The notes beneath the pieces are model-generated. The model was not told the DNA's origin, did not search any database, and worked only from the letters and a program-made list of their open reading frames with translations. DNA of 64,000 nucleotides from Clostridium manihotivorum (GTDB taxonomy: Bacteria > Bacillota > Clostridia > Clostridiales > Clostridiaceae), in assembly GCF_004015185.1 (NCBI RefSeq), contig NZ_CP025746.1, positions 1,441,776-1,505,775 of the forward strand, read 5' to 3'. Both the position numbers and the translations under genes were made by a program. This document shows positions 61,561 to 62,333 of the stretch, piece by piece. Each line of letters begins with the position of its first letter. The first letter of the stretch is position 1.

Positions 61561-62333
61561 TTATCAGTATTTTTATATAGTATAACCTCATATTGTTAAT
61601 ATGTCTATGGGATTATTAAAAAAATGATAAATATAAAGTTTGAAATCAATTTATTTAGCAATTGATAATGACTTCGATTACATTATAGAGAAAAAGAATA
61701 ATTTGGCAATGAGGTGTTTCTAAATTAAAGTAGCTTTTGGAAATTAAGTGGTTAGTCATCCGATGCTTAGATGAGCTTACGCAAAGAATTAAAAATTAGA
61801 AGCTTTTGTAGGTACTTTAATAAATTAACCATTTATTATCAAATTTGAAATCATATGTTCACATTTAGGCTTTATTATATAGATATAAGATATTATTACA
61901 GATCCCTAAGTTTTATCAGTTGAATTTACAGAGTTCGGCTGATTTTTTTTTGCGTTTGAACTCTTTAATTATATAAATATAACAATAAAACTTCTTACAT
62001 TGTTAAGAATAAATAAATATAAAAATATAAGAAGTTAAAAAGTTAAGAAGTTAAGAATTTATTGGAATAATGCGGGTTGAGAGGACTTAGTCCAATAAAA
62101 ATTAATAATTTTATATAAATGAGAAAGAAAACTATTGAATATAAGATTGATTTGTAATAATATTACAATGCTGCGCTTAAATAAGGTAATGTGCTTGGAT
62201 GAATAAAACTAGTTATAAGTGCACTCTTTGGTGTGGGAGAAGCCACTCTAATTATGAAGCTTTCAAAAAAGTAGTTTATCTCAAATCTAAGGCAGTTAAT
62301 TATGAATTGAACATGTAGGGGAGGGCTGAGAGA

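Follow-up and report, generated by a model that had tools for sequence, protein, structure and literature searches.

Repeat copies in the window

The window, a 64,000-nucleotide stretch of Clostridium manihotivorum DNA with a G+C content of 30%, carries genes for an SDR protein, a DsbA-like protein, a DnaJ/TPR protein and an ABC transporter, together with insertion sequences and a family of short repeats scattered between the genes. The original prediction described four copies (a to d) of a ~48-nt motif, all of which are present where it placed them and are non-random; a 16-nt core allowing up to three mismatches is found 8 times in the window against 1.7 expected, a number that 0 of 100 shuffles reached. 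Global alignment returns the predicted 46 identical positions between copies a and b and adjusts some details of the others. The location of copy a is right, with the motif starting at 61740 rather than 61741; copy d is similar to it as claimed, at 39 of ~49 positions (80%) instead of ~78%; and the partial similarity of copy c, correctly confined to the 5′ part, reaches ~31 nt and not ~25. A profile built from the known copies recovers further ones, bringing the number in the window to at least 8 copies or fragments. All of them lie between ORFs, and the description as a "dispersed intergenic repeat family" is correct. The copies are found beside unrelated genes, in both orientations and in both 5′ and 3′ positions. 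No copy or fragment was detected in positions 1-28000 of the window, while the next 34 kb hold at least 8.

The conserved unit is longer than the reported motif. It starts about 20 nt further 5′, with CTCTGTTAAAG..., the flanks reading (G)GCTCTGTTAAAG, and the extended left-end consensus is GGCkCTGTTAAAGyACnnTGTTGAAATTAAGTGG.... The 48-nt motif corresponds to positions ~23-72 of a 240-bp consensus, described below, which is used here to number the copies.

Copy a (61718..61793, plus strand) lies upstream of the ABC transporter, as first placed, and is a left-arm fragment covering consensus positions 9-77 (nhmmer against the 240-bp profile, E=1.7e-15). Its tip has decayed to TTTCTAAATT in place of GGCTCTGTT, and its right arm is no longer recognisable. 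Copy d (59911..59983, plus strand; consensus 4-74, E=5.3e-11) is likewise a left-arm fragment and begins 2 nt past the stop codon of the DnaJ/TPR gene (57351-59909). The strong hairpin and T-run that follow it at ~59993-60040 form an independent terminator hairpin.

Copy b (49256..49453, minus strand) is made up of a left arm, with consensus 2-145 running from window position 49453 to 49307 (E=6.5e-39), followed by the first ~50 nt of a passenger module otherwise seen in a 415-bp variant of the element (window 49256-49306). The homology stops ~30 nt short of the start codon of the DsbA-like gene, an ATG at 49223-49221 with a GGAGG ribosome-binding site, and the ORF 48498-49436 that overlaps copy b is a spurious upstream extension of this gene. 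A consensus scan places a promoter-like TTGAGT-17-TATAAT at 49524-49496 on the minus strand, upstream of the copy. Since copy b sits between this site and the DsbA-like start codon, it probably belongs to the leader of this gene, where the original prediction placed it. An outward promoter within copy b driving the DsbA-like gene was also considered and rejected, as the same scan finds a promoter only upstream of the element.

Copy c (43153..43284, minus strand) retains both terminal inverted repeats, with consensus 2-56 joined to 167-241 by an internal deletion. The profile search locates the inverted partner of its left end at 43153-43192, and the left repeat holds an internal 8-nt duplication. 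The copy is flanked by a target-site duplication on the minus strand, AGACTATA on the left (43285..43292) and AAACTATA on the right (43145..43152), which match at 7 of 8 positions. The TAG stop codon of the SDR gene (ORF 43291-44190) shares its final two bases with the left duplication. The 3′ positions reported for copies c and d are accurate, both lying directly after stop codons. Nearby, copy i (42955..43031, minus strand; consensus 2-77, E=1e-5) is a diverged left-arm fragment, possibly with a very degenerate right arm extending down to ~42903.

The remaining minus-strand copies are single ends. Copy e (28447..28485) is a left terminal repeat alone (consensus 2-41), copy f (35757..35787) is a solo left terminal repeat (consensus 4-32), and copy h (31203..31232) is a solo terminal-repeat remnant, GACTCAGTTAAAGTACCATATTGAAATTTA, in which only the outer repeat is recognised (E=1.8e-4). 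The window copies are old, decayed relics: a, b, d and i are left halves, and e, f and h are solo ends. Copy c is the only one keeping both ends and a duplication, and the only one that still looks transposable.

Several other features share the window with the repeats. An IS607-type element encoding a MerR-HTH/resolvase TnpA and a TnpB is present in two copies of 1.85 kb (28483-30326 and 49806-51648; 98.7% identical). A frameshift divides tnpA in both copies, and in the second tnpB is broken as well (50345-50872 and 50809-51489). The reconstructed empty sites are CAGAGG|CTAAATT and GGGAAGG|AATAATT. The insertion point of the first element (28483/6-30326) is the CC of the copy e tip, which reads GG on the opposite strand. 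Each element contains a match to RAGATH-18 (RF03064; 68.6 bits, gathering score 44.9), at 30221-30284 and 51543-51606, some 54 nt downstream of the tnpB stop codon; the match probably belongs either to the guide-RNA scaffold of TnpB or to the right end of the IS. A decayed IS at 36005-37823 has 19-bp terminal inverted repeats (TTAAATAGTCTCTCGGAAT) and a minus-strand transposase in three ORF pieces, of which a 303-aa piece has no Pfam match; it was rejected as the owner of solo end f because its own repeats are unrelated. Elsewhere, three tandem 225-bp units (3506-4077; 84-90% identical) in ORF 3062-4132 would encode a 75-aa repeat protein, and of two low-complexity ORFs (47775-48386 and 33358-33774) one is glutamine-rich with long Q runs and the other has PQYQQA repeats and then a TM2-like hydrophobic tail.

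Distribution in related clostridia

The outer-repeat pattern CTGTTAAA-N8-TTGAAATTAA was also searched for in other species, each of them represented by a single genome. At least 84 loci match, and at least 56 of these fall in four Clostridium species: Clostridium sp. C8-1-8 (at least 23), C. zeae CSC2 (at least 18), C. folliculivorans D1-1 (at least 8) and C. yunnanense (at least 7). The other 28 matches listed are attributed to chance, being single matches in unrelated taxa without the GG tip or further similarity. The window itself lies in none of the regions retrieved from these species, yet copy b aligns with many of their loci over 135-220 bp at 84-90% identity. The family is thus present in multiple copies dispersed both within genomes and across related ones, as MITEs are.

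Large C. estertheticum and C. tagluense plasmids also carry solo remnants of the right end (e.g., locus L089, 4001-4040, and locus L090, 3001-3029), with weaker right-end remnants on C. perfringens plasmids. These plasmid remnants indicate that the family, or a relative of it, extends beyond the four species found in the scan.

Structure of the full element

Alignment of the long copies from the relatives gives a canonical element of 240 bp, of which the reported motif is the left arm. Its consensus begins GGnGCTGTTAAAGnACCGTGTTGAAATTAATTGGTTAATCATCCGACGCTTTAATGAGCTTACGCAAAGAATTAATATGA... and ends ...ATAACCAATTAATTTCAACAATATTCTTAAACATAGCC, spanning GGCkCTGTTAAAGyAC... to ...GTTTAAACATAGCC. The terminal inverted repeats are ~37 bp long, with GGCkCTGTTAAAGyACnnTGTTGAAATTAAkTGGT pairing with GGCTATGTTTAAkAATATTGTTGAAATTAAkTGGT, or in short form GGCGCTGTTAAAGCAC...TTGAAATTAA, and a profile of the repeat finds 99 matches in 435 kb of related loci. 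The element as a whole is one long imperfect palindrome. The copy in locus L034, for example, folds at -78.3 and -88.7 kcal/mol on the two strands (z of about -9.3), and the internally deleted copy c of the window at -34.9 and -39.9 kcal/mol (z of -3.8 and -3.2). The statement that the motif is neither a terminator nor a palindrome consequently applies to the 48-nt fragment only, as copy c is a 132-bp hairpin-forming unit and the full element a 240-bp palindrome.

Paired elements form a size series of 54, 56, 63, 87, 90, 99, 101, 110, 116, 119, 128, 139, 210 and 222 bp, followed by ~240 bp (eleven copies), 334 bp and 413-418 bp, and a further 47 solo ends are found in the relatives' loci. In the short forms the arms are symmetrical and the centre is missing, while the 334-bp and 415-bp forms have extra sequence inserted at the centre. 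The longest variants, translated in six frames, yield short, stop-interrupted frames and no ORF. At 54-418 bp and with no transposase ORF, the elements stay within the small size (under ~500 bp) expected of a MITE.

The 415-bp variant (locus L031, 3811-4229; L061, 3794-4211; L070, 4246-4663) carries a passenger module of ~180 nt. This module holds a hairpin, CGCCTGCC...GGCAGATGCG, and ends in a terminator-like stem with a T-run behind it (AATCACTAAT...ATTAGCGATTTTTT). Rfam has no match to the module, which could be a small transcribed cassette. The 334-bp variant (locus L017, 1199-1535) has a different central insert with a perfect hairpin of its own (TTTTCAGAAACTCTGCTCAGAACCAAGCAGAGTTTCTGAAAA).

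Target-site duplications and a proposed mode of transposition

The footprint of transposition was sought by projecting the tips from the repeat profile and comparing the 8 nt on each side of 29 paired elements. The flanks are identical at 7 or more of the 8 positions in 24 of the 29, and perfectly so in 14, while a displaced control with the right flank shifted by 20 nt gives 0 of 28. The duplicated 8-mers are AT-rich and different at every site, examples being TAATTTTA, TTTATTTA, ATATAATT, AAAAAGAA, TAGAATAA and ATTAATTA. The elements therefore have terminal inverted repeats and a target-site duplication of fixed length whose sequence varies among copies. Taken with the small size, the lack of an ORF and the many dispersed copies, these features identify a MITE. 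The reported motif is very probably the left terminal inverted repeat of a non-autonomous DNA transposon of the foldback MITE type, together with the ~40 nt next to it. The original prediction had named a match to the terminal repeat of a known MITE or IS as grounds for refuting it, and this applies in part, as the motif maps to a MITE terminal repeat.

Footprints of this kind suggest that the element has been mobile, and a plausible sequence of events can be proposed. A DDE transposase supplied in trans would bind the ~20-37-bp terminal repeats, and the MITE would be inserted into AT-rich intergenic DNA through cuts staggered by 8 bp, whose repair would leave the duplication. Replication slippage at the hairpins of so long a palindrome may then remove or add central sequence, giving the 54-418-bp size series. 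As a possible side effect, transcripts of the SDR and DnaJ/TPR genes may have gained a hairpin at their 3′ ends, and the DsbA-like gene one in its 5′ leader.

Covariation between the arms

The two arms of the palindrome have changed together. Across 14 copies, pairing extends to 96.9% of cells. Compensatory changes, affecting both sides of a pair, are seen in 19 of the 67 pairs; shuffling gives 4.8 on average, and 0 of 500 shuffles reach 19. Slid controls, in which the partner is moved by 1-3 columns, give 0-6 compensatory pairs. Wobbles of the G:U type number 13 on the plus strand and 13 on the minus strand, and there is no strand preference. This argues against a transcribed and selected RNA, which should favour one strand, whereas a palindrome changing by transitions should not. 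The covariation is better explained in other terms: subfamilies may descend from different palindromic masters, or the arms may correct each other through hairpin intermediates; a structural (hairpin) requirement for mobility is also possible.

The compensatory changes do lend themselves to another reading, in which the family is a mobile hairpin or small-RNA cassette shaping transcript ends. Its basis is the arm changes seen across species, together with the terminator-like hairpin in the passenger module and the copies at stop codons and in a 5′ leader. The high copy number and the clean 8-bp duplications would further imply that foldback substrates enter as simple insertions under clostridial IS6-like transposases, unlike the cointegrate-only paradigm of IS26. 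We consider this reading unlikely.

Probable affiliation with the IS6 family

Inverted repeats of the IS6 family have a GG tip with cTGTt and caaa motifs, and insertion generates an 8-bp direct repeat (Varani 2021, PMC7986276). A clostridial group within the family (ISCbo1, ISCpe7, ISClte3) stands out by the greater length of its transposases and of its inverted repeats, the latter ranging from 20/25 to 28/36 (Harmer and Hall 2019, PMC6807381). ISCbo1 is present in 25 chromosomal copies, mostly intergenic and with 8-9-bp direct repeats (Skarin 2011, PMC3098183), which means that this clade leaves simple duplicated insertions in chromosomes.

The tips of the MITE resemble those of this clade. 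In sequence records, IS257, IS1216 and a Bacillus IS6 element have GGTTCTGTTGCAAAGT at both ends. ISCbo1 on plasmid p3BKT015925 (NC_015418) has the tips GGTTCTGTTAA(G/T)T and an 8-bp duplication, AATATAAG, and ISCpe7-like copies from C. perfringens, C. septicum and C. botulinum have the tips (C/G)GATCTGTTAAGTT. The left tips of the MITE read GG[C/T][G/T/A]CTGTTAAAG, the copy in locus L056 being GGTTCTGTTAAAG, and its right tips GGCTATGTTTAA. Most left tips have GG followed by CTGTT at positions 5-9, and by this comparison the MITE shares GG-nn-CTGTTAA with the clostridial IS6 clade in the same register. The caaa block is only approximate, with AAAG in the MITE (CTGTTAAAG), CTGTTAAkT in ISCbo1 and CTGTTGCAAAG in IS257. 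The 8-bp direct target repeats of the MITE agree in length with those of the IS6 family. Homologues of the clostridial-clade transposase are abundant in Clostridium, with 712 in public data at E<=1e-20.

Similarity between the MITE and the ends of known IS6 elements stops after ~11 nt, as seen in the four clostridial-clade homologues whose ends were compared. As the ends are unrelated past this point, none of these elements is the direct parent. A matching parent would carry the ends GGCGCTGTTAAAGCACCGTGTTGAAATTAA, and no transposase-bearing partner with matching repeats is present in the window or in 56 loci of the relatives (435 kb, ~2% of their genomes). Within these 56 loci no transposase lies beside the solo ends, and across the window and the loci no gene for an IS6-type transposase (PF13610) lies beside any copy of the MITE; tblastn with the IS257 and ISCbo1 transposases was likewise negative for the window and all loci. 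Widely spaced repeat pairs in loci L043 and L009 were considered as autonomous copies and rejected, as they enclose ordinary genes. Queries of a plasmid collection with the whole MITE and with the individual repeats recover only the solo remnants of C. estertheticum, C. tagluense and C. perfringens, with no transposase nearby. An IS6 transposase query of a phage collection gave no Clostridium matches, a stricter repeat pattern found one unrelated match and no parent in metagenome contigs, and all four matches in a scan of viral contigs are due to chance.

We infer from the ends and the duplication that the MITE probably belongs with the clostridial IS6 clade. The transposase acting on it would accordingly be an IS6-family enzyme of the zinc-finger-extended clostridial type, related to those of ISCbo1 and ISCpe7. 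A point that counts against IS6 is the behaviour of its classical IS26-type members, which move by cointegrate formation, without obvious multiplication of a MITE within a chromosome.

The main alternative is mobilisation of the ISL3 or IS1595 type. More broadly, any non-IS6 transposase that makes 8-bp duplications and acts on GG tips (ISL3, IS1595 or IS256) might have moved the MITE. ISL3 and IS1595 elements likewise make 8-bp duplications and carry GG tips, and these shared features are compatible with ISL3 as the source of the ends. The ~37-bp repeats are more typical of ISL3 than of classical IS6 (14-20 bp), no IS6 partner has been found, and the GGCTCT tip of many copies resembles that of ISL3, which we take to be GGCTCTT. 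Set against this, CTGTT at positions 5-9 past the GG is the exact IS6 register, and it continues as CTGTTAA as in ISCbo1 and ISCpe7 (PMC7986276). The length of the repeats is also less telling than it appears, as the clostridial IS6 members have longer repeats of 20/25 to 28/36 (PMC6807381), and their transposases are, as noted above, abundant in Clostridium. A transposase from outside the IS6 family is accordingly given little weight.

RNA motifs and other mobile hairpins

The original prediction likened the first part of the motif to the T-box core. A cis-regulatory RNA of mRNA leaders or trailers, whether a T-box-like element with GAAATTAAGTGGTTAG as its core or another riboswitch or attenuator, would agree with the location of copies a and b upstream of genes and of copies c and d in 3′ UTR positions, and with the strong covariation of the arms. 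The T-box likeness itself is a loose 14-nt resemblance (AATTAAGTGGTTAG) and, for copy b, a 5′ location. The T-box family RF00230 has no match at the gathering score in the window and none at E<=1 at 61600-62340. The only Rfam matches in the window at the gathering score are the two to RAGATH-18, inside an unrelated IS, and permissive searches (E<=1 or E<=10) with copy a, a full-length copy and the 415-bp variant return nothing relevant, neither T-box nor other family. T-boxes are recognised by a covariance-model match and by a sense-oriented 5′ leader position before aminoacyl-tRNA or amino-acid genes, and neither is seen here, nor is a specifier/antiterminator architecture. The copies occur in both orientations beside DsbA-like, ABC ATPase, SDR, TPR/DnaJ, DUF5700 and PTS EIIC genes. 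The proposed core is missing from many of them, which are solo ends or mini-elements of 54 bp. The 8-bp target duplications and terminal inverted repeats are hallmarks of transposition, and the strand-symmetric mismatches (13 G:T versus 13 A:C) fit a DNA palindrome rather than an RNA selected on one strand. The T-box likeness is that of a transposon end; an RNA switch is not supported, and regulatory RNA in general is very improbable as an account of the family.

Also very improbable is a REP/BIME-like element or IS200/IS605-derived PATE that a Y1 transposase would mobilise in single-stranded form, or a preferred landing site for IS607/TnpB, as suggested by the hairpins and by one IS607-type copy that abuts copy e and another ~350 bp from copy b: elements mobilised by Y1 enzymes have subterminal hairpins, no target duplication and a fixed tetra- or pentanucleotide target. 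In the present family the repeats lie at the termini, and duplications of 8 bp with varying sequence flank 24 of 29 elements. The IS codes for TnpB and a fragment of a serine recombinase, with no Y1 transposase; the MITE is touched by only one of the two IS607-type copies, and both IS607-type flanks (CAGAGG|CTAAATT and GGGAAGG|AATAATT) fit a simple GG crossover.

Comparison with known elements

Small intergenic elements with inverted repeats, long hairpins and length variants are known from other bacteria, among them Correia in Neisseria, ERIC in enterobacteria and RUP and BOX in pneumococci. These are often co-transcribed with neighbouring genes, with documented effects on transcripts; the target duplicated by Correia elements is TA, and RUP is associated with IS630. 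The Clostridium MITE is similar to them in form and differs in host, sequence and presumed transposase family.

ISCbo1 and ISCpe7 are similar to the MITE in their GGTTCTGTTAA tips in the same register, their 8-bp AT-rich duplication, their intergenic location and their high chromosomal copy number. They differ in their length of 1.27-1.31 kb, in encoding a zinc-finger-extended transposase of 340-345 aa and in ends that are unrelated past ~11 nt. Closest in kind are the two IS6 MITEs listed by ISfinder (PMC6807381, PMC7986276), MITEBth2 and MITEHarch3, at 227 and 336 bp (PMC6807381, PMC7986276). Like these, the Clostridium family is short and ORF-less with IS6-type ends, from a family that makes 8-bp duplications. 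What would set it apart is its Clostridium host, the palindrome over its full length and the ~37-bp repeats, with tips that match the clostridial IS6 clade (CTGTTAA) and not the CTGTTGCAAA type.

Implications

The repeat is most likely an ordinary relic of mobile DNA, a foldback MITE family related to the clostridial IS6 clade. Where copies have inserted beside the DsbA-like, SDR and DnaJ/TPR genes, they might affect how stable the transcripts are or how they terminate. The main value of the finding is for annotation, as it accounts for a set of intergenic blocks that are conserved across this clade of Clostridium and open to misreading as riboswitches, small RNAs or terminators, and the consensus and diagnostic features are available for masking copies of the MITE. 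IS6-related MITEs are also rare in the literature, with two listed in ISfinder (PMC6807381, PMC7986276), and a foldback family that is present in many copies and carries IS6-type tips would offer a way into transposition in the unstudied clostridial IS6 clade.
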